Assembly (NCBI GenBank): GCA_030606485.1
Contig: JAUWGH010000002.1
Coordinates: 390,001-422,000, forward strand
Length of the DNA stretch: 32,000 nt
Origin: Promethearchaeota archaeon
GTDB taxonomy: Archaea > Asgardarchaeota > Lokiarchaeia > Sigyniarchaeales > SOKP01
Direction of reading: 5' to 3'
Part shown: in pieces, positions 573-19,541 of the stretch
Numbering within the stretch: position 1 is the first letter of the stretch
How the letters are laid out: every line of letters begins with the position of its first letter
Position numbers and translations under genes: made by a program
Notes under the pieces: model-generated
Told to the model about the DNA's origin: nothing
What the model saw: only the letters and a program-made list of their open reading frames with translations
The model's database searches: none

Positions 573-1301
573 GTGATTAAAATAGAAGTTTTCACACAAC
601 AAAATGATTTTAAAACATTCGAAGCCCAAATAATTAGCAATTTATATGAACAAAACCCTGATCTTAAAGAAAAAAAACAGGAACTAAAACTTAAGTTTGC
701 ATTGTTAGAAGTTCAAATGAATGAACTCATAAAGGTTGCGAAAAAAACTAATATGAAACATGCAAGAATGATTGAGACTCAATTAAATTGCGGTCTCAGG
801 GTTAGTGAATTAATCCATTTATCAATTAATCAAGTAAATCTTGAGGGAAAGTTTCTAAAAATTGAGAAAAGAGAAAAGAATCTCTATGTTGATGCATTTA
901 AGCCAAAAACGAAGAATAGCACCAGAATTCTTCCCCTAAGTGACAAAACCATCGACATTCTTAGATAACAAATTGACAAAAAGCGAAATGGATATATATT
1001 TCCATCCAATAAAGGGGTCCATTTCAACAAGTCTTCTGTAATCAGATTTATTAATAAATATGCAAGAGAGAGCAGAACTATAGGATTTAATATTGGATCC
1101 CATTCTTTAAGAAGAACTTTTGCATCATATTTAATTACAGATCCAAAAAGATCACCAGGAGAGGAACAAATCACAATTTCCGATATTTGTAGATTACTTG
1201 GCCATAAAAATATCAAAACCACAATGGAATATCTTTTCAATATTGTTAATTTAGTTGATTTCGAAAAAATAAGAACCTCTATAGATAGAATGCATAATTA
1301 A
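573..1301 (+). pseudogene. Tyrosine recombinase/integrase (catalytic domain) with one in-frame TAA at 966-968
   Basis: The frame continues past the TAA to 1301. Catalytic motifs: GLRVSE (R), PKTK (K), HSLRR (HxxR), LLGH (H), TTMEY (Y). Confidence 0.9.
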
Positions 1302-2122: not shown

Positions 2123-2185
2123 ATTAAAAAATATTTAAAATTTACTTTTTTTCTACACTCTATTTTTTTAAATTTTAATATAAAG

Positions 2186-2225
2186 AATATTTATACTGAA
2201 AAAATAATATTTATACTGAAAAAAT
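2186..2225 (+). repeat. Perfect tandem repeat, 2 x 20 bp (AATATTTATACTGAAAAAAT), upstream of the ParB gene
   Basis: Read directly at 2186-2205 and 2206-2225; each unit contains TTTATA (TATA-box-like). Confidence 0.9.
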
Positions 2226-2243
2226 AGTAAAAGGGTGAAAATT

Positions 2244-3560
2244 ATGAAAATAAAATTTGAAAATTTAGTACCAAATAAATATAATCCACGCAAACTTTTT
2301 AGAGGAGCATCTATGGAAGAGCTTAAAGAATCTACTAAGGATTTCGGACTTATAGAGCCATTAGTAGTGAGACAGCTCAAGAACGGAAAATATGAAGTTG
2401 TTGCTGGAATGCGTAGATATCATGCTTTGAAGGAGCAAAAAATAGAAGAAGTAGAATGTAATGTTCTAGATTTAACCAACAAACAAGCTATTGACGTTGC
2501 TTTTATCGAAAATATCCAAAGACAAGATTTAACTGCAATAGAAGAAGCTAATATGTTTTTAAATCGTTTAAAAATAAATCCTGAATTTTTGAAGAAATTC
2601 AAAAAATCGGAAACCGTTTCCGATTTTTTCTCTAAAAACTTAATATCTGGAGATTCCAAATTTACTAAAGAACTTGGTGATACCTATCATATAAACCCAA
2701 AAACAATCTTTAATAAACTTAGTTTATTATGTCTCCCAGAGACATTACAGAATGCTATTGAAATTGATGAATTACAATTAAGAATTGCTTATAATATAGC
2801 AAGATTGCGTCAAATAGAAGATAATGATCTTGCTCAGAAATCTATGCTTGAAATATATAATGACTATAAAAAAGAGAGAGATTCGATAAGTTTAGATGAA
2901 ATAAAAATGAGAGTATCCAAAAAAATTGAGTATTATAAATCCAAAAAAGATGAACAAGAAGAAATTACTGAACAGAGAATTCAAGAACTAAAAAGGAAAA
3001 TAAAAGAGACAAAAGAGAGCAAAGATGAAATATTGAAGAAATTAGCTAAGAAAATAATAGAAATTCATAATAATGAAGCATTTACCGATATTGATTTCTC
3101 TGAAATGGAGATTATTGAATATGATGATGATAAAGAGTTATTTGAAAAAAATGATAGAGAAACCATTTTTTCAAAAGGTGAGAAAGTTTCTGAATTTTTG
3201 GAGGAAGAAGATAAAAAATATAGGGGAAATGAAATATATGAACGAATAGTAGAAAATATTGATGATTTAGAAAATAAAATCTCAGATATTCGATTACTAA
3301 TAACTAGGGTTAAAGAAAAAAATATTACGCAATGTCCTTTCTGCTATGCAAGGATTGACCTACCTGAGATTAATAAAAAAACAGAGGAATACCAAGATGA
3401 ATTAGAAGACTTAAAATCACAACGTTCTAAAATAGCAGGTATAAGTGGTTTTATTTCAGACAGACGGAAGGCAATAAATAAGATATACAGTGCTTTCGAA
3501 TCTAAGGATAAATTTATAGAAGACTTTGAAAAAGAACTGGAGGACTTAAGAATTGACTAA
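2244..3560 (+). CDS. ParB/RepB/Spo0J-family protein with long C-terminal coiled coil and central CPFC motif
   Basis: N-terminal NPRK, GLIEPLVVR, AGMRR (GxRR) and ENIQR motifs, then an HTH-like segment and a charged helical C-terminal half with CPFC at 3333-3344. ATG 2244 follows a GGGTGA SD (track start is GTG 2235). Confidence 0.88.
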   Translation: MKIKFENLVPNKYNPRKLFRGASMEELKESTKDFGLIEPLVVRQLKNGKYEVVAGMRRYHALKEQKIEEVECNVLDLTNKQAIDVAFIENIQRQDLTAIEEANMFLNRLKINPEFLKKFKKSETVSDFFSKNLISGDSKFTKELGDTYHINPKTIFNKLSLLCLPETLQNAIEIDELQLRIAYNIARLRQIEDNDLAQKSMLEIYNDYKKERDSISLDEIKMRVSKKIEYYKSKKDEQEEITEQRIQELKRKIKETKESKDEILKKLAKKIIEIHNNEAFTDIDFSEMEIIEYDDDKELFEKNDRETIFSKGEKVSEFLEEEDKKYRGNEIYERIVENIDDLENKISDIRLLITRVKEKNITQCPFCYARIDLPEINKKTEEYQDELEDLKSQRSKIAGISGFISDRRKAINKIYSAFESKDKFIEDFEKELEDLRID

Positions 3561-4341
3561 ACCTACATATAAAGAAGTTAAACCAGACGAAAAAGTTCCA
3601 TTTGAAAAAGTAGAAGTTCATAGAATCTCAATTGATCCAGTCTTATCTCTTCTAGAATTATTAACTATAATAAATGAAAGGGAAAAAGAAGGGGTAATAA
3701 AGTTATTAGATATCTCTTTTGAAAGCTCTCCCCAATCAGCAAAATATGGCTCCAGAATTGGGTTTGGTAAAGATGAAAGACTTATTGTAAGAAGGATGGA
3801 AGAGACAATGTATGTTCCTAAAAGAACATTTAAGTTTACAAAAGATTATACAATTGAGGACGCTATTGAAGCTTTTGAAGATTTAGACCAATATCTTATA
3901 GAAACCAAACATGACTATACTTTAGACATATATCCCACTTCTCTTAATGTTTTGGATATGGGATCTAAACCAGAACGTGCACAAATGATTATAAGATTTG
4001 GGAAGAAAAGAAAAGTTGATAAAAATAGTGAAATAGGTTTAGAATTAAGTGGAGCTCAAATAATGCCACTTGATGCTATCAAACTTTTTATAGCCATAAG
4101 AGATAAAAGAACTAAAAATTGGAGAAAAGGATCAATCCCATCAAGAATTGCTGATAAAATGAAAAAATATGTTGATGGAACCTATTTTATTGAAGCTGAT
4201 GACATTAAAAACTACACAAGACATATTTATAAATCCGATTTTACAATTAAGACAACTTGTATAGTAGGTAAAGAGAGAAAAACTTTCGATAGATACACAC
4301 CAATTCCTGGTGGCAAATGTAGAAAAGTCCCTAAAGATTAA
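3553..4341 (+). CDS. Hypothetical protein (262 aa), overlapping the ParB stop
   Basis: Long ORF whose TTG start overlaps the parB end by 8 nt; no family recognised. Confidence 0.8.
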   Translation: MTKPTYKEVKPDEKVPFEKVEVHRISIDPVLSLLELLTIINEREKEGVIKLLDISFESSPQSAKYGSRIGFGKDERLIVRRMEETMYVPKRTFKFTKDYTIEDAIEAFEDLDQYLIETKHDYTLDIYPTSLNVLDMGSKPERAQMIIRFGKKRKVDKNSEIGLELSGAQIMPLDAIKLFIAIRDKRTKNWRKGSIPSRIADKMKKYVDGTYFIEADDIKNYTRHIYKSDFTIKTTCIVGKERKTFDRYTPIPGGKCRKVPKD

Positions 4342-4475
4342 TTTTTTATTTTTTACTTTCAGTCTCCCCTCTCAGTGTCCTATAAATAGATTAGAGTGCG
4401 TGGACTTACTGATTTAACAAATATTTATATTATTGATCATCCTAATTATTTTTGTCGATAAATAAATTAACAAAA

Positions 4476-4811: not shown

Positions 4812-4914
4812 TGGTGCGCCCGCCGGGATTCGAACCCGGGCCCCTAACGTGGCAGGCTTTTATCTATTTCTTAAGTTAAGAAAATAAAGGATAATACCAC
4901 TATACTACGAGCGC
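4812..4914 (-). tRNA. tRNA-Gly(GCC) with encoded CCA and a 29-nt intron
   Basis: Acceptor stem GCGCTCG/CGGGCGC, T-arm CCGGG-TTCGAAT-CCCGG, A73 and CCA. The anticodon stem CTAGC/GTTAG around CT-GCC-AC forms once the intron is removed (74 nt mature). Confidence 0.95.
4859..4887 (-). other. tRNA intron at non-canonical position 28/29 with bulge-helix-bulge-type junction
   Basis: Intron TTATTTTCTTAACTTAAGAAATAGATAAA. Exon TATC (23-26) pairs with intron GATA (4-bp helix), 3-nt bulges are CT|T and AA|A, and the internal hairpin is TATTT(T)CTTAA/TTAAGAAATA. Confidence 0.85.
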
Positions 4915-5965: not shown

Positions 5966-6110
5966 ATTTTCTCACCTATTTTTATTTGGAATAGTAAACA
6001 GTCATAAAAATCAGATTTAAGTTTAAAGCTAAATTTTTTAAATTTAAATTTTGTTAAAAAGGCAAAAAAAAAATATTTAGATTCTATTTCTGTACTGCAC
6101 ATCGGACAAA
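5951..6110. repeat. 160-bp direct repeat, copy A
   Basis: 156/160 identical to 7683-7842; contains the zinc-finger gene 3' end, the intergenic spacer and the pfkB start. Confidence 0.95.
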
Positions 6111-7682: not shown

Positions 7683-7842
7683 ATCAGATAAGTTAATGTT
7701 TTCTCACCTATTTTTATTTGGAATAGTAAATAGTCATAAAAATCAGATTTAAGTTTAAAGCTAAATTTTTTAAATTTAAATTTTGTTAAAAAGGCAAAAA
7801 AAAATTATTTAGATTCTATTTCTGTACCGCACATCGGACAAA
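7683..7842. repeat. 160-bp direct repeat, copy B
   Basis: 156/160 identical to 5951-6110; carries the functional stop of 7805..8194. Confidence 0.95.
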
Positions 7843-8215: not shown

Positions 8216-8863
8216 TTAGTCGTCAGATTCTTTCAATTCTTTAAGCTCATTTTCTAAATCTTTAATTCTTTGATCCCCGCCCACTGTAGGGAGTTGTATT
8301 CCTGTTTCAACCGAAATTTCAGCATCAATTTCTCCTAATACATTCATAACATCTTCATTCGAAACACTTGTGTCAACATTGATATTTTCAATTCCATCTG
8401 CAGTAATTTCCTCAGTAACTTGAAAATCTTCGATTCCTATATCAATGTCTTTGATTGTTTCGGTTATTTCAGGAATAGATATCTGTGATTTTAATCCTGA
8501 AACGGAACCAGCTATTGCTTTCATAATTCCAGCAACATCTTTAATTGCGGAGGCTTGTTCTAACTTAAATTGCAATCCTTCAAGATTTAATTTAAAGGTT
8601 GAAATTCCTTTTGACCATTTTTTAAATTGTAAATAACCCCGGGCATGAACTTCAGCACCTTTCATATCTCCTTCTTTTCGAAATTTAACAGCTTTAGTTC
8701 TTGCTTGTTTTGCTTTCGCTTCAAGTTTTTTTGCTTGTCTCTCTAAGCGTTTGTTAAAGATTTTAAGTTTAACGGTAACGGATCGAACATCTCGATCTTT
8801 TGATCTACCACCACTTAACCAACCACTTACGTCTTTTAGAAAACCCAAAATGATTCTACTCAA
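8216..8863 (-). CDS. ESCRT-III protein, Vps2/24/46-like (Snf7 family)
   Basis: Helical Snf7-type core (basic N-terminal half, acidic C-terminal half), amphipathic N-terminus and MIM1-like tail (RIKDLENELKELKE); divergent from Vps4. Confidence 0.88.
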   Translation of the reverse strand: MSRIILGFLKDVSGWLSGGRSKDRDVRSVTVKLKIFNKRLERQAKKLEAKAKQARTKAVKFRKEGDMKGAEVHARGYLQFKKWSKGISTFKLNLEGLQFKLEQASAIKDVAGIMKAIAGSVSGLKSQISIPEITETIKDIDIGIEDFQVTEEITADGIENINVDTSVSNEDVMNVLGEIDAEISVETGIQLPTVGGDQRIKDLENELKELKESDD

Positions 8864-8918
8864 TTATTTTAAAATTAATCTTCTTAAAATTACTTAAGAA
8901 ATAAATATTTATTTTAAT

Positions 8919-8985
8919 ATATATCTTAAAAAATATTTAAGATATTTCAATCTATTTTTATTAGTAGATATATCTTAAAAAATAT
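8919..8985. promoter_or_regulatory. Repeated motif in the divergent ESCRT-III/Vps4 promoter (candidate operator)
   Basis: ATATATCTTAAAAAATAT at 8919-8936 and 8968-8985; inverted repeat ATATCTTAAA-N5-TTTAAGATAT at 8921-8945. Confidence 0.45.
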
Positions 8986-9008
8986 ATTCTGTTGTGAGTA
9001 AAAATTAA

Positions 9009-10226
9009 ATGAGCTCTTTAGATTCTAAGTTGTTTTCTTTTGCAATGAAAGAAGCAAAAGAAGCAGTTGAGTATGATAAAAAGGCTGAATATCAAAAAGC
9101 CATTAATAAATATAGTAGAGCAGCTGAAATATTAATTCAATTTGCAAAATACAATAAAAATCCAAGTTTGCAAAAACTATGCCAAGAAAAAATTCACGAA
9201 TATGTCTCCCGTGCTAAGACATTAAAAAGAAGTTTGAAACCTTATAAAAAAGGAAGGATTTCAACTCGTAAGAGAGTAACTAAAAAGGGAAAAGATTCAG
9301 AAGAAATCGAAGAAGAGGAGATTTTAACCAAAGAGCAACAAGAACTTAGAGAAGTTATTTCAGGAACAATCATCACCGAATTACCTGATATTCGATGGGA
9401 CGATATTGCAGGATTAGTGGAATGTAAACAATCTCTTAGAGAAGCAATAGTTTTGCCTATAATGAGACCAGAATTATTTACCGGTGCTAGAAAGCCATGG
9501 TCTGGTATTCTTTTATATGGTCCTCCAGGTTGCGGAAAAACTCTCCTTGCTCAAGCGGCAGCAACAGAATGCGATGCAACTTTTTTTAGCGCATCAGCAG
9601 CTGAATTATTATCAAAATGGCTTGGGGAAAGTGAGAAATTAATTAGCTCATTATTTAAATTAGCAAGACTTGAAGCACCAAGCATCATATTTTTTGATGA
9701 AATTGATTCTATTACGACTTCGAGGGGATATGGATCGGAGAGTGGTGGAGAGAGAAGAATCAAAACTCAATTATTAGGTGAAATTCAAGGTCTTAAATCA
9801 AGGACTGAAAAATTACTTTTAATTTTAGGTGCGACAAATCGACCTTGGGATATTGATACAGCAATGTTGCGAAGATTTGAGAAAAAAATTTATGTCCCTC
9901 TCCCAGACGAAGAAGCGAGAGAAGTGATTTTTAAAATACATACAGCTGGGGTAAATCTCTCACTTACAGATAATGATTTTAGAGAACTTGGAGAAAAAAC
10001 TGCGGGATATTCTGGATCTGATATTGCAAATGTTTGTAGAGAAGTGATTATGAGACCGATAAGAGAGTTAGATATGAGTGGAAAAATAACTGCCGAAGCA
10101 GAGGAAATTATCGTTAGAGATGTAAATATAGAAGATTTTAACAAAACACTTAAAAAAATAAAACCAATTGTATCTGAAAAAGAAATAAAGAGATACCATG
10201 AGTGGTTTGAACAATTTGGTGAATGA
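9009..10226 (+). CDS. vps4: Vps4-like AAA+ ATPase with N-terminal MIT domain
   Basis: MIT-like helices (AVEYDKKAEYQKAINKYSRAAEIL), GPPGCGKT Walker A, IIFFDEID Walker B, GATNRPWDID...RRFEK and GYSGSDI. Confidence 0.93.
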   Translation: MSSLDSKLFSFAMKEAKEAVEYDKKAEYQKAINKYSRAAEILIQFAKYNKNPSLQKLCQEKIHEYVSRAKTLKRSLKPYKKGRISTRKRVTKKGKDSEEIEEEEILTKEQQELREVISGTIITELPDIRWDDIAGLVECKQSLREAIVLPIMRPELFTGARKPWSGILLYGPPGCGKTLLAQAAATECDATFFSASAAELLSKWLGESEKLISSLFKLARLEAPSIIFFDEIDSITTSRGYGSESGGERRIKTQLLGEIQGLKSRTEKLLLILGATNRPWDIDTAMLRRFEKKIYVPLPDEEAREVIFKIHTAGVNLSLTDNDFRELGEKTAGYSGSDIANVCREVIMRPIRELDMSGKITAEAEEIIVRDVNIEDFNKTLKKIKPIVSEKEIKRYHEWFEQFGE

Positions 10227-10255
10227 TAAATAGTAATTAGGTGCATCCTTGAACG

Positions 10256-11137
10256 ATGGAAAGACAAAAAGCTAAAGAAGTCCCAAAAGAAGAAATTGCT
10301 GTATCAGATGAAAAAATTGAAGAACTAAGGAAAGAATTAGAAGATCTAAGAAAAAAAAAAGAAATAAAATTACAAGCAGAACAAAAAAAGGTAAAGGAAA
10401 AAGTAGAACCAACAATTTCCATCGATTTAGATGATATAGAAAAAAGATTAGATGCTATTGAAGAATTTCTTGAAGAAAAATCTCAAGCAACCGAGGTTAT
10501 AATTAAAGCAAAAGATTTGGATGAGATTGAGAAAGAACTTCAGTCTATCGAAAGCGAAATTGTAATTGAACCAAAGGTTATAGAAAAGGAATTAACTTCT
10601 TATGAAATATTAATTAAAGAGCATACATGGCTTGAAGAAGCTAGATATGAATATATGTTTTCTGCTCCAGATACAAAGAAAAATGCTAAAGATTATCAAT
10701 CTTGGTTAATTGAGTGGAGCCAAGTAATTTATGATTATGCCCGAATATCGATATTGCACGTTCTCTATATTAGAAAATTAAATGCTGAGAAACCATTTTC
10801 TAAACTACGCAATAGAGATGGCGCAATCGCTGCAATAGCTCAAAAATTAGTGGATCAAAATATTGGAGTATGGTTAAATAAAAAAAAAAAAGAAACATTA
10901 AGAATTTATTGGAAAACTTTAGATGAGTGGGCAGAAGAAATACTTAATTGGGCACGGGAAAACGGTAAATTAGAACCAATTCTAACTTTTGAAATTCGCG
11001 AGTCTGGGGAACTTTTTGCAGATTTGCCCAAAAGGGATTTAACACGAATATTTAAAAGATTAGAAAAAGAAGGCAAAGGAGAAGTAATTAAATCTGAAGA
11101 AGGAGATATTACTTTTAAAATAAATTTGAATTATTAA
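10256..11137 (+). CDS. vps25: ESCRT-II Vps25 (EAP20)-like protein with acidic helical N-terminal extension
   Basis: C-terminal tandem winged-helix pattern (QSWLIEWSQVI, YWKTLDEWAEEILNWARENG, IFKRLEKEGKG); directly after Vps4. Confidence 0.75.
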   Translation: MERQKAKEVPKEEIAVSDEKIEELRKELEDLRKKKEIKLQAEQKKVKEKVEPTISIDLDDIEKRLDAIEEFLEEKSQATEVIIKAKDLDEIEKELQSIESEIVIEPKVIEKELTSYEILIKEHTWLEEARYEYMFSAPDTKKNAKDYQSWLIEWSQVIYDYARISILHVLYIRKLNAEKPFSKLRNRDGAIAAIAQKLVDQNIGVWLNKKKKETLRIYWKTLDEWAEEILNWARENGKLEPILTFEIRESGELFADLPKRDLTRIFKRLEKEGKGEVIKSEEGDITFKINLNY

Positions 11138-11206
11138 ATTTTAATTGAAATTCTTTTTTATAAATGCTTATTTGATTTACCTTAATTTTCAGATTCAGAA
11201 AAAACT

Positions 11207-11761
11207 TTATTTATTTGCTTCTTTCATGATATAGTGAAAGATACAGCGTTTCTTACCTGTAGCCTGACGCTCTTTTAGGATGAGCTTTATATCTGGGTTG
11301 TATCCTTCAAGGATACAATAGTCCACATATTTGCAATAGATTTTGGCATAATCACCTAAACCCCAATCTTCAGCGCCATTATAAAAAGTGCAATTTTTCA
11401 CTTTTATAATAAAATCACTGTCTTCTATGCTCGCTATTGGTTTAAAGTTTTTTATTGAATCTATGTCTGAATATATTAACCAGTTCTTGAATGTTAAGGG
11501 TTTCCCCTCTGCTCTTACCCTTTCAGCAATTCTTTTTCCCCTTTCCCTTCCAAAATATTCCACAGCCTCCTTAAGGAGCGCCTCGCCATCTTCAGGTCCT
11601 AGCTTCTCGATTATAAATTTGGCAACACTAGAAAACAACTGAGAGGCTAAACCAAATCCCGGTGTCTGATATTTATCTCCAATCTCTATTTTTTGGGGGA
11701 GAACATCATCTAAATATTCGAAATCAAAACCTTTTTCATTTTCTCTTTTTAAATCATCCAT
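11207..11761 (-). CDS. L-2-amino-thiazoline-4-carboxylic acid hydrolase-like (V4R/HNOX-clan) protein
   Basis: AVEYFGRERG, VKNCTFY, YCKYVD...GYNPD and a late Cys (KRCIFHY). Confidence 0.75.
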   Translation of the reverse strand: MDDLKRENEKGFDFEYLDDVLPQKIEIGDKYQTPGFGLASQLFSSVAKFIIEKLGPEDGEALLKEAVEYFGRERGKRIAERVRAEGKPLTFKNWLIYSDIDSIKNFKPIASIEDSDFIIKVKNCTFYNGAEDWGLGDYAKIYCKYVDYCILEGYNPDIKLILKERQATGKKRCIFHYIMKEANK

Positions 11762-11873
11762 TTCTTTTCAACATTATATTAGAAAACTTTATATAATTAA
11801 TTAATGCAAAAATAAGTTATTTTCTTCCATCTTCTCTGCGTTTCTCTAAATTAGGGGTATTTCCTTTATTGAA

Positions 11874-12590
11874 CTAAGAGATCGAAGGAAAATACCACTT
11901 CTTTCCTCTTAAGTATGACTCATCTTTTTTGGCAAAACCACTGGCTTCTAAAGAATTTAATGCCCTCAATGCTCTTTCTTGAGACCATGATAATTCTGAG
12001 CATGCATCTTCTAAAGAAATAAAACCCTTTTCTGAAGCTAATGAAATTACTTTTGCCTCATCATCGGTATGTTGAATGGAGAAAAATCTAACTTCAATAA
12101 CTCCATCATCAAGCTCCCGAATATTAGGAATTACTTTCCTTTTCTTTAAAAGATACATAGCTTTAATTACATCTTCAATCTCTAAATGATTCATGAGAAT
12201 ACCTGTATTCACAATTTCAAATACGTCAGAGATCGGCATAATACCTCCAGTTTCTTCTTTTTCCATTAAAACTCTTTGGTATGCTAACATACCTAATTTT
12301 TCATGATCAATTTTTCTCTTTTTTCTTAAGACGTCTATTTCTTCAATTCTTTCAGTAATAATTCGCGAAGTAGGAATATCAAATTTCCTCTGTAGTTCTT
12401 TAATTTCATCTCTTAATTCAGGATCTAAAGCAAGAATTACTCCGTGTTTGATTGCAATTTCTCTTATTTTGTCTTTGGCAAATTCTCTTGTTTTTGCTTC
12501 TTCTTCAAGTTCTTTTTGCTTTAACTCAATGCCCTTCCTCTTCATTGCTTCTTTTAGATCAATATCATCCTCTATTTTGCGAATCCCCAT
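11874..12590 (-). CDS. vps22: ESCRT-II Vps22 (EAP30)/Vps36-like winged-helix protein
   Basis: GGIMPISDV, LSWSQERALRALNSLEASG and terminal WYFPSI; ATG 12590 follows a GGAG SD (track start 12617). Confidence 0.8.
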   Translation of the reverse strand: MGIRKIEDDIDLKEAMKRKGIELKQKELEEEAKTREFAKDKIREIAIKHGVILALDPELRDEIKELQRKFDIPTSRIITERIEEIDVLRKKRKIDHEKLGMLAYQRVLMEKEETGGIMPISDVFEIVNTGILMNHLEIEDVIKAMYLLKKRKVIPNIRELDDGVIEVRFFSIQHTDDEAKVISLASEKGFISLEDACSELSWSQERALRALNSLEASGFAKKDESYLRGKKWYFPSIS

Positions 12591-12695
12591 ATAGTTCTCC
12601 GACTTTTTTATATGCACTTACTTTTATTTTTTAATATTATAATTATTAAATAATAACAAGATTATATTTTTTTTTCGCTTTATTAATTTAAGATA

Positions 12696-17891: not shown

Positions 17892-19541
17892 ATGATAAAA
17901 GGGAAAAATTATCTAATAATTATAAGTGGAATTCTCTTACTAACTCTGATATTGGCTTTTCAATTTTCTTTATTTGGCTATGAATTTTCATGGAATGAAT
18001 ATTATAATGATAAAAATAATCTGTTCCTTTCTCAATCTACAGATCATCAATATCTTTTGGAGTGGAATAAAATATGGAATGAATATGACGTAAGCGAAGT
18101 AAGTGGGATAGGAGTTGATTCTTCTGATAATGTATTTATTGTGGGAAGTATAAAAAGTCTTGATACGGGAAAAGATGATGTATTTCTTCTGAAATATAAT
18201 AAAACTGGAGATCTACTGTGGAATAAGATATGGGGCGGACCTAACTATGATAATGCATATGGTTTAGTAATTGATTCTTCTGATAATATATATATCGTAG
18301 GAAGTACAGGTAATGATACTGGAGAATATGTTGGTTTTGAACTTGACAAACTTAAAAACTTAGATATAATTCTTATAAAATATAACAATTTGGGAGTCGA
18401 ACAGTGGCATAAGACTTGGGGGGGAAGTTTTGATGAGGTAGGTCGAGCCATAGCATTGGATTTGGAAAATAATATTTATATTGTGGGAGACTCAAATAGA
18501 ATTGATGAGGATCATCCTCCAAACTTGGATATTGATGTTATTCTTGTGAAATTTGATTGTTTAGGCAATTATCAATGGGATAAAATATTATATGACCTTA
18601 GAGGTATGGGTTGGGAACATGGTCGTGGAGTAGAAATTGATTCTTCTAACAATATTTATATTGCGGGATATATGCATTGGGAGGAGATGATGCTGTGGAA
18701 ATACACTAGTTCCGGAATCCAAGAGTGGAATACAATACGGGATATGAGGATTATGGATATAGGGGGAATAGCAGTCGATTCTTCTGATAATATTTATATT
18801 ATAGGAACAACTGGCTTTCATTCTTTAGGAACAACTATTTTTCTTTCGAAGTATAATTGTTCAGGAAAACAGAAATGGTATAAAGCATGGATGAATGTAT
18901 CTTACCCAGCTCAAGATCACGGTACGGGAATAGCAATTGATTCAGTGGATAATGTCTATGCTATAGGAACTGCTTTACTAAAATATAATTCCAATGGCGC
19001 CCTACTATTATTAACTACAGAAATAACTGGTAAGAAAATTGGTATAGATTCAGAAGATAATTTATTTATTACTGGCGCGTCAGGCAGTGATGTATTTCTT
19101 AGAAAATACAATATTGATTCGGATGGTGATGGATTATCGGATAGGGAAGAGGAAAACATTTATTTTACAGATCCTTATGATTCAGATTCTGATGACGATG
19201 GGTTAACAGATGGCGCAGAAATTAACAATTATTCGACAGATCCGAACGATTCTGATTCTGATGACGACGGGTTAACCGACGATGAAGAAGTGAATAGTTA
19301 TTTGACAGATCCAAATAATTCAGATACTGATGGTGATGGATTTAAGGATGGAGAAGAGGTATTTAGAGGTTTTGATCCTAATAATGCATTGAATAATCTT
19401 TTGATGGGTAATATAGGAATAATTATAATACTTTTGACAGTTTTCGGATTAATTACAATCTTTATAATTTATCCTCGTATAAAGGTGAAAAGAAAAGTAG
19501 AAGATTTAGAAAGCGAATTATCGAAACAGACATCAATTTGA
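17892..19541 (+). CDS. Membrane-anchored surface protein: SBBP-like beta-propeller repeats plus TSP3-like Ca-binding repeats
   Basis: N-terminal hydrophobic signal/anchor, repeated GIAVDSSDNIYIVG units, four DxDxDG(L/F)xDxxE repeats and a C-terminal TM helix. Confidence 0.88.
   Translation: MIKGKNYLIIISGILLLTLILAFQFSLFGYEFSWNEYYNDKNNLFLSQSTDHQYLLEWNKIWNEYDVSEVSGIGVDSSDNVFIVGSIKSLDTGKDDVFLLKYNKTGDLLWNKIWGGPNYDNAYGLVIDSSDNIYIVGSTGNDTGEYVGFELDKLKNLDIILIKYNNLGVEQWHKTWGGSFDEVGRAIALDLENNIYIVGDSNRIDEDHPPNLDIDVILVKFDCLGNYQWDKILYDLRGMGWEHGRGVEIDSSNNIYIAGYMHWEEMMLWKYTSSGIQEWNTIRDMRIMDIGGIAVDSSDNIYIIGTTGFHSLGTTIFLSKYNCSGKQKWYKAWMNVSYPAQDHGTGIAIDSVDNVYAIGTALLKYNSNGALLLLTTEITGKKIGIDSEDNLFITGASGSDVFLRKYNIDSDGDGLSDREEENIYFTDPYDSDSDDDGLTDGAEINNYSTDPNDSDSDDDGLTDDEEVNSYLTDPNNSDTDGDGFKDGEEVFRGFDPNNALNNLLMGNIGIIIILLTVFGLITIFIIYPRIKVKRKVEDLESELSKQTSI
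19116..19385 (+). repeat. Four intragenic TSP3-like repeats (DSDxDGLxDxxE...TDP), ~23 aa each
   Basis: Visible in both protein and DNA (gattctgatgacga repeats). Confidence 0.85.

Follow-up and report, generated by a model that had tools for sequence, protein, structure and literature searches.

Prokaryotes hold DNA by two main nucleotide-switched means, ParB clamps and Rad50/SMC rings. Among the ParB-type systems, KorB of plasmid RK2 is a cytidine triphosphate (CTP) clamp which has a regulatory role without ParA and works with a partner, KorA, and the ParB of the Sulfolobus plasmid pNOB8 has AspA and ParA as its partners. We know of no report of a ParB clamp and a Rad50/SMC-type hook in one chain. 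Here, we describe a gene, referred to as ParB-hook, from a 32,000-nt stretch of a Promethearchaeota archaeon genome (assembly GCA_030606485.1, contig JAUWGH010000002.1, positions 390,001 to 422,000; the window in the following), the product of which combines a ParB head with a long coiled-coil arm carrying a hook-like CxxC module that appears related in sequence to the Rad50 zinc hook. Together with a partner gene it forms a two-gene cassette, carried by an 8.1-kb element that has inserted at a tRNA gene. In line with the original prediction, which had not recognised this architecture as described, literature searches for ParB combined with a zinc or CxxC hook returned no description of it.

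For the nucleotide switch of ParB proteins, the catalytic residues in Myxococcus xanthus ParB (MxParB) are Q52 of the QPR motif and E93 of the GERR motif, and in MxParB lacking Q52/E93 hydrolysis is abolished whereas ring closure is retained (10.1101/2021.05.05.442810). PadC from the same bacterium possesses a ParB-like domain without the catalytic Q/E pair and is catalytically inactive (10.1101/2021.05.05.442810). ParB-like genes also occur on archaeal and Asgard elements, plasmids and viruses, such as the mobile genetic elements of Atabeyarchaeia, the Heimdallarchaeial HeimV1 and aloposons (PMC11529989; PMC8813620). The ParB-like proteins in the available parts of these reports differ from ParB-hook in having other C-terminal parts (endonuclease, methylase or unknown flanking domains), and those parts mention neither a coiled-coil hook nor a partner of the kind found here.

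Compared with these systems, ParB-hook is most similar to ParB/Spo0J/Noc, which gave the best sequence and fold matches and show the same order of an N-terminal nucleotide domain bearing GxRR and ENxQR motifs and a helix-turn-helix (HTH) domain. In contrast to them, however, an arm of about 230 residues tipped with CxxC takes the place of the C-terminal dimerisation domain, asparagine and methionine stand for the catalytic Q and E, ParA is missing, a parS was not recognised, and an obligate orphan partner is present. With Rad50/SbcC (PF04423; structures 1l8d, 6zff, 5gox and 7zqy) the protein shares an antiparallel coiled coil whose tip bears C-P-x-C, but it has neither the ABC ATPase head nor an Mre11/SbcD partner, and its paired arm comprises only about 60 residues, or about 140 when counted from the DNA-binding domain to the tip. 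KorB is a further ParB-family structural match, which, unlike ParB-hook, keeps the C-terminal dimerisation domain, has no coiled coil and no hook, and is accompanied by a small HTH repressor, KorA. PadC resembles ParB-hook as a structural match (6ryk) and in missing the catalytic Q/E, while being a bactofilin-ParA adaptor with neither HTH clamp nor hook. For pNOB8 ParB, the N domain was found as a fold match (5k5d).

The assignment of the head is clear. The Pfam model ParB_N (PF02195) covers residues 2-92 with an E-value of 3.4e-22 and 78.8 bits (cut-off 26.3), and phmmer against PDB sequences gave E-values of 3e-21 to 3e-13 for Noc, Spo0J and ParB. HTH_ParB is weak on ParB-hook itself, with 17 bits being below the cut-off of 22.6, and passes the Pfam cut-off in the homologs L191 and L193. 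In an AlphaFold2 model built from 21 family sequences, with a mean predicted local distance difference test score (pLDDT) of 86.6, about 229 columns spanning the N domain and the HTH were matched by Foldseek to Noc, ParB, Spo0J and KorB (E 3e-10 to 6e-6). Likewise, VIA-align superposed model residues 20-222 on Spo0J (1vz0) with a Z-score of 12.7 and a root-mean-square deviation (rmsd) of 3.6 over 165 aligned residues. By its head and HTH, ParB-hook is a member of the ParB family. Accordingly, the ParB N domain, the HTH, the long coiled coil and the CxxC at a hairpin tip deduced in the original prediction were all recovered by Pfam, Foldseek and AlphaFold2, and the translation places GMRR (residues 55-58), ENIQR (residues 89-93) and CPFC, with the context quoted for it, where they had been reported.

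The earlier designation as an intact CTPase is not upheld in that form. The nucleotide-binding motifs are indeed kept, as the contact residues R16, G55, R57, R58, E89, N90 and R93 are invariant or almost so among the 21 sequences; within these motifs G55, R57, R58, E89, N90 and R93 are fully invariant. The catalytic pair is not, since in the alignment to Noc (7ng0) N14 stands opposite the catalytic Q of QPR and M56 opposite the catalytic E of GERR, with M56 being invariant and N14 present in at least 90% of the family. Because the nucleotide motifs are kept and both catalytic residues are replaced, little CTP turnover is to be expected; CTP binding is predicted, with hydrolysis being very slow or absent. 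A third cysteine invariant in the family, besides the two of the hook motif, is C72, at which position canonical ParBs have alanine.

Beyond residue ~230, no ParB structure was matched by Foldseek or VIA-align, so that the canonical C-terminal dimerisation domain was not detected; correspondingly, PF23552 is listed for canonical ParBs and for none of the family's full-length members. As had been stated in the original prediction, no parA lies nearby: the AAA_31 (ParA/MinD) model has 12 matches across the genome, but the 490-kb contig bearing the window is free of them. A ParA-type gene does not adjoin any of the listed homologous loci either.

The arm following the HTH, about 230 residues in length, is modeled by AlphaFold2 as a helix of 59 residues (217-275), a linker (276-295), a second helix (296-358), a loop (359-372) and a third helix (373-437). 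The first helix is basic (isoelectric point, pI, 9.1; pLDDT 86-93), and the acidic linker (pLDDT 67-83) is rich in indels in the family alignment. The two distal helices form a hairpin of about 9 nm with CPFC in the tip loop, the pLDDT around the hook being 87-93, and hence the monomer model shows the hairpin apex that had been foreseen and not a compact zinc ribbon. Furthermore, conservation of the motif, the lack of which was to speak against the earlier proposal, is seen in the homologs: C364 and C367 are invariant in 21 of 21 sequences with identities down to 25%, and P365 is retained in at least 90%. Three further copies from genomes also keep C-x-x-C, as CVYC or CPYC. The conserved CxxC is, judged from this alignment, more than a chance occurrence. 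The two are the only invariant cysteines of the arm, and other conserved Cys or His residues are absent among the 21 sequences; two cysteines without any invariant His in the arm fit a half-site needing a second chain. A zinc site half joining two chains would correspond to this pattern.

For comparison with known hooks, a profile was built from the C-terminal 130-145 residues of 19 family members. Among 177,635 PDB sequences, the Rad50 hooks of Pyrococcus furiosus ranked first and second (6zff, E 0.0015; 1l8d, E 0.0022), followed by a third-ranked match at E 0.14, although these E-values are borderline and may be inflated by coiled-coil composition. CPFC is in register with CPVC of P. furiosus Rad50 in these alignments and also with CxxC of Asgard Rad50-like proteins, and hydrophobic positions are conserved on either side of CxxC as in the Rad50/SbcC hook. 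When applied to 400 genomes of the phylum (E 1e-5), the profile matched in nine, four of which represent the family itself. The other five matches are proteins of 637-933 aa with SMC_N/AAA_23 heads, all matched at CxxC, and two of these five Rad50/SbcC-like ABC ATPases pass the cut-off of the Pfam Rad50_zn_hook model. With hhalign, the family arm aligned to the Asgard Rad50 hooks at a probability of 98%, and at 74% after deletion of 13 hook columns, the corresponding E-value being optimistic since this hook set was picked from the profile's own matches; the C-side arms alone reached 54%, and cross-arm and other coiled-coil controls 1-13%. The resemblance to Rad50 hooks, noted in the original prediction, thus reappears in profile searches and hhalign, and the arm appears to carry a hook-like module whose sequence is akin to that of the Rad50 zinc hook, with tests that are borderline and partly circular.

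Structural comparison speaks to geometry. Many two-helix hairpins superpose on residues 327-404 with an rmsd of 1.6-2.5 Å. Fragments of eukaryotic Rad50 hooks aligned over residues 230/243-437 (5gox_B, Z 8.8, 169 aligned; 7zqy_A, Z 8.4, 165/175 aligned), with Z-scores of 8.4-8.8 that many other helical hairpins reach as well. Consequently, the structural Z-scores support a hairpin apex in the model, and not a compact zinc ribbon, and do not support kinship. A complex prediction for two copies of the C-terminal segment with zinc scored 0.12 versus a mark of 0.42, which counts on neither side. In a Protein Atlas feature search with residues 296-438, the best scores were 0.88 and the cluster at rank 8 contains PF04423 in 12% of its members, which can serve as a lead only. 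Longer proteins sharing the hook segment were not found among 895 candidates, a result carrying little weight, and a search of genome contigs with a profile of the full alignment was swamped by ordinary bacterial ParBs and recovered no family member. In any case, ParB-hook is not a Rad50, because at the other end of the coiled coil there are a ParB N domain and an HTH instead of an ABC ATPase head.

According to the original prediction, such a clamp could act by itself. This part is not supported, as a conserved overlapping partner gene is present at every locus seen. A homolog of the partner gene directly follows ParB-hook at all loci for which DNA is available (L001, L002-L004, L005/L006, L007/L008, L030, L191, L192 and L193), even where the identity of ParB-hook is only 27-30%, and two further contigs bear open reading frames (ORFs) of 280 and 251 aa at this position. 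By blastn, positions 2161-4359, which span the upstream region as well as both genes and extend 18 nt further, are 87% identical to L007/L008, and since homology ends at both sides, the gene pair moves as a unit. Comparison with the copy at L007 gave ratios of nonsynonymous to synonymous substitution rates (dN/dS) of 0.10 for the partner and 0.16 for ParB-hook, values which indicate that both cassette genes are under purifying selection.

The partner family consists of 21 clusters among 1.84 billion representatives, with sizes of 231-289 aa and none longer, besides five short rows (43-197 aa) matching the profile partly. Searches against Pfam, PHROG, PADLOC and PDB sequences gave no match. Although modeled well (pLDDT 83.7; predicted template modeling score 0.79), the partner did not resemble any fold in the searches run, the best results being E 0.025 at a template modeling score (TM) of 0.13 with Foldseek against the PDB, Z 4.1 with VIA-align and a TM of at most 0.38 in the Atlas. 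RepDE, CYTH and TBP-like folds appeared as weak rows and were rejected as noise. Members are mostly basic (median pI 8.7), Y127, D174 and C256 are invariant and C236 is near-invariant; C236 and C256 are the sole cysteines in most of them.

Just upstream of the operon, there is a tandem direct repeat in which each unit has a TTTATA box and which is retained as two copies in L007. An exact 18-mer of this repeat occurs in the genome only at the two repeat positions. It is a candidate for a duplicated promoter, an operator or a ParB binding site. In other subfamilies, the upstream region bears 20-nt direct repeats unlike these (L005), an inverted repeat of 20 nt (L030) or a palindrome of 17 nt (L002). 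Besides, in one subfamily (L001 7078-7884, L002 7068-7874 and L003 317-1123, all on the minus strand) a gene of 268 aa, the product of which has HFX_2341_N and WHD_DUF6293 domains, is transcribed divergently from the cassette, the 17-nt palindrome being located in the intergenic region between them; a dedicated cassette regulator is a possible role of this gene.

As listed in Table 1, the cassette is part of an element that ends in direct repeats of 14 nt. The left copy of the attachment (att) core lies at window coordinate -3290, 8,105 bp upstream of the right one; a second copy was not found inside the window. Contigs of two other metagenomes, X3 (subsurface) and X4 (sediment), join both flanks, skipping exactly these 8,105 bp and sharing the 14 letters. 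The 8.1-kb element is a true insertion, and the X3 and X4 contigs represent the empty site. The intron-bearing tRNA gene at 4815-4914, which was missed by ARAGORN but recovered with Rfam, is the integration target. In X3, the cassette (corresponding to L209 5937-8354) was also encountered on a separate contig of 2.65 kb with about 91% identity at a depth of 8, compared with 142 for the empty-site contig of the host-like genome, and is thus in a minority strain or on another replicon. In the sister species G146, a different insert of 2.9 kb is found between the same att cores, and in the sister species G145 a divergent ParB-hook with its partner stands beside the same tRNA flank. Both halves of the integrase gene match Phage_integrase (profile positions 4-79 and 90-166), with the frame unchanged across the in-frame TAA, for which recent decay or a sequencing error may be responsible. 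The motifs of the catalytic region seem to be intact. Finally, a TATAAATA box flanked by short inverted repeats (CACTCT ... AGAGTG) makes up a conserved motif, about 55 nt long, that occurs five times in three different elements at the tRNA site (window 4345-4400; L208 4160-4214, 7200-7260 and 8241-8300; L207 1266-1331, reverse), the identity between genomes being 87-89% over 61-67 nt. This motif probably represents a promoter or operator which the elements of this family have in common.

Table 1. Features of the ParB-hook cassette and of the element bearing it (window coordinates unless indicated otherwise)
Feature	Position	Strand	Details and basis
ParB-hook ORF	2235/2244..3560	+	441 aa with GTG start, 438 aa with ATG at 2244; intact
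ParB N-terminal nucleotide-binding domain (residues 1-95; YNPR, GMRR, ENIQR)	2244..2528	+	PF02195
ParB-type HTH DNA-binding domain (residues 96-210)	2529..2873	+	Foldseek, VIA-align, Pfam in homologs
Basic helix and acidic indel-rich linker (residues 211-295)	2874..3128	+	AlphaFold2, alignment indels, segment pI
Antiparallel helical hairpin (residues 296-438)	3129..3557	+	AlphaFold2; dN/dS 0.17 versus L007
Hook motif codons C364-P-F-C367	3333..3344	+	Translation, alignment
Partner gene, 262 aa	3553..4341	+	TTG start, overlaps ParB-hook stop by 8 nt; pI 9.2; C236, C256
Tandem direct repeat, 2.2 copies of 20 nt	2182..2226	+	Tandem Repeats Finder (TRF) score 83, repeat search; ends 18 nt before ATG
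Integrated element, 8.1 kb	-3290 to 4828 (contig 386711-394828; L209 710-8828)		14-nt direct repeat ends
Tyrosine recombinase (integrase) gene	573..1301	+	One in-frame TAA at 966-968
tRNA gene with intron, 100 nt, anticodon loop GCC (Gly), CCA end encoded	4815..4914	-	Rfam RF00005, 42.1 bits
Right att core copy, 14 nt, TGCGCCCGCCGGGA	4815..4828	+	Exact repeat; equals tRNA gene 3' end

In Asgard archaea, the cassette is carried by integrative elements and by virus-like contigs. One member of the family was found on an IMG/VR viral contig, adjoining genes for an RFC-like AAA+ ATPase and a GIY-YIG nuclease. The named homologs of ParB-hook belong to Promethearchaeota and Thorarchaeota, and within the phylum the distribution is sporadic, with four of the 400 genomes, all from one family-level group, being positive. 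Elsewhere in the genome, paralogous two-gene modules are present at L010 (C13:59352-62675) and L011 (C10:104136-107447), where a gene of about 260 aa is followed by an overlapping one for a ParB_N protein (368 and 391 aa, respectively) with another, hook-free C-terminal domain. L012 contains a third ParB_N gene, of 341 aa.

Taken together, we tentatively propose that ParB-hook is a ParB-family DNA clamp with a hook-tipped arm, encoded in a two-gene cassette and serving the ParA-independent maintenance of elements, an account that in its full mechanism falls just short of an even chance. The HTH would bind a site on the element, for which the repeats just upstream of the operon are a candidate. 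CTP binding would then shut the N-domain gate, and the closed state might be long-lived because both catalytic residues are replaced. Two arms would be joined by four cysteines, two from each chain, holding one zinc as in Rad50, and the joined arms could either form a ring resembling that of Rad50/SMC or link one DNA molecule to another, with the partner protein acting as an adaptor or second subunit. The role would be an upkeep of element DNA without ParA by pairing, tethering or compaction, possibly together with silencing of the own promoter. Zinc binding, dimerisation, closing on DNA with CTP and the function of the cassette are what we infer here from motifs, models and gene context. In a more specific and rather doubtful version, CTP-locked ParB heads zinc-hooked at their far ends would constitute a Rad50/SMC-like ring with a CTP switch, in which the orphan partner would be the closing piece or adaptor and perhaps share the metal site by its own two cysteines.

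Besides the reservations attached above to the hook statistics, several observations weigh against this proposal. The Pfam hook model Rad50_zn_hook (PF04423), which the original prediction had named for comparison, does not match the ParB-hook gene even at E 10 and is not among the Pfam matches of the 19 C-terminal segments, where only scattered coiled-coil families appear; this model is weak in general, its cut-off being passed in only three of 14 control genomes and by no match in the host genome. The upstream repeat shares a AATATTTATA box with the region preceding the next gene and may therefore be only a duplicated promoter. Moreover, the integrase is broken here while the cassette is intact, which would also fit a function of benefit to the host or an addiction module, and genes related to defence or toxins stand close to the cassette at some loci, namely GmrSD_N and BrxE (L001) as well as Peptidase_M78/DUF4411 and PemK (beside P0027).

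The last two points are likewise among those speaking for a conflict module, in which the ParB-like protein would be a sensor or clamp on foreign or competing DNA and the partner the effector, or for an exclusion or addiction cassette. Two-gene cassettes mobile as a unit are typical of such systems, and ParB-superfamily domains are the sensors in GmrSD, SspE and Menshen (PMC12065111). Against this background, however, PADLOC matches neither protein, apart from a methyltransferase model in its stretch resembling ParB-N, the N domain and HTH fit canonical ParB/Noc/KorB and not DUF262, neither by fold nor by motif could the partner be recognised as a nuclease, protease or NTPase in the searches run, and one member adjoins replication genes on a viral contig. 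We consider a conflict module unlikely. A regulatory function has been weighed as well, with a KorB-like silencer loading at the repeats of its own promoter and sliding as a CTP clamp, the coiled coil providing constitutive dimerisation and CxxC being structural. Repeats or palindromes in the operon promoter region of several subfamilies, KorB among the structural matches (8qa8/8qa9, E ~2e-6) and the cooperation of KorB with KorA would agree with it, but it leaves unexplained an invariant two-cysteine motif at the hairpin tip with Rad50-like flanks and a 260-aa partner unlike any repressor. In addition, silencing overlaps with rather than excludes the maintenance function, and as a separate explanation it is quite improbable.

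Two other explanations concern the metal site. Instead of joining two arms, the cysteines of ParB-hook might form one metal site with C236 and C256 of the partner, which would then cap the arm. In accordance with this, ParB-hook supplies two ligands only, the partner offers one invariant and one near-invariant cysteine, its only ones in most members, and translational coupling links the two genes, which always occur as a pair. The partner homolog P0088, however, lacks C236, and the arm resembles Rad50 hooks, which self-pair, so that pairing with the partner has a low probability. Still more improbable is that CxxC is not a zinc hook at all and functions as a redox pair or as a self-closing site with another residue, for example C72. 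The invariance of this cysteine in the family, where canonical ParBs have alanine, and the missing match to the Pfam hook model could be taken in favor of it. Nevertheless, in the model C72 belongs to a core strand of the N domain and is separated from the hook by about 290 residues and a long rod, a fourth conserved ligand does not exist, and the likely source, a cold-seep sample, points to a probable anaerobe in which cytoplasmic disulfide chemistry would be unlikely.

Further features of the window, the G+C content of which is about 29%, characterize the host. An endosomal sorting complex required for transport (ESCRT) cluster at 8216-12617 comprises Snf7 (8216-8863, minus strand), Vps4 with an MIT domain (9009-10226, plus strand), an ESCRT-II subunit (10256-11137, plus strand) and EAP30/Vps36 (11874-12617, minus strand). 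This ESCRT gene set and the homologs in Promethearchaeota and Thorarchaeota identify the host as an Asgard archaeon. At 6015-6058 and 7747-7790, 1,732 bp apart, the same two TRF arrays with identical consensus units are found, pointing to a segment that has been duplicated and flanks the region of the nitroreductase gene. Within the ORF at 17892-19541, a 69-nt tandem repeat (19116-19361, plus strand; 3.6 copies, 72% matches) encodes an acidic peptide rich in D, E and G.

DNA segregation and element maintenance in Asgard archaea are almost unstudied territory. If the clamp with a hook-tipped arm is real, one would expect about 0.5 zinc per chain, joining of the chains that depends on the cysteines, CTP that is bound but not turned over, and binding to the promoter repeats, and since ParB-hook and its partner are small and soluble-looking, these predictions are directly testable in vitro. 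The zinc hook would then be a portable joining module, and a CTP gate could replace the ABC ATPase head. In this way, Asgard mobile elements could bring their copies together in pairs or ride along on the host chromosome, with no need of a ParA motor.

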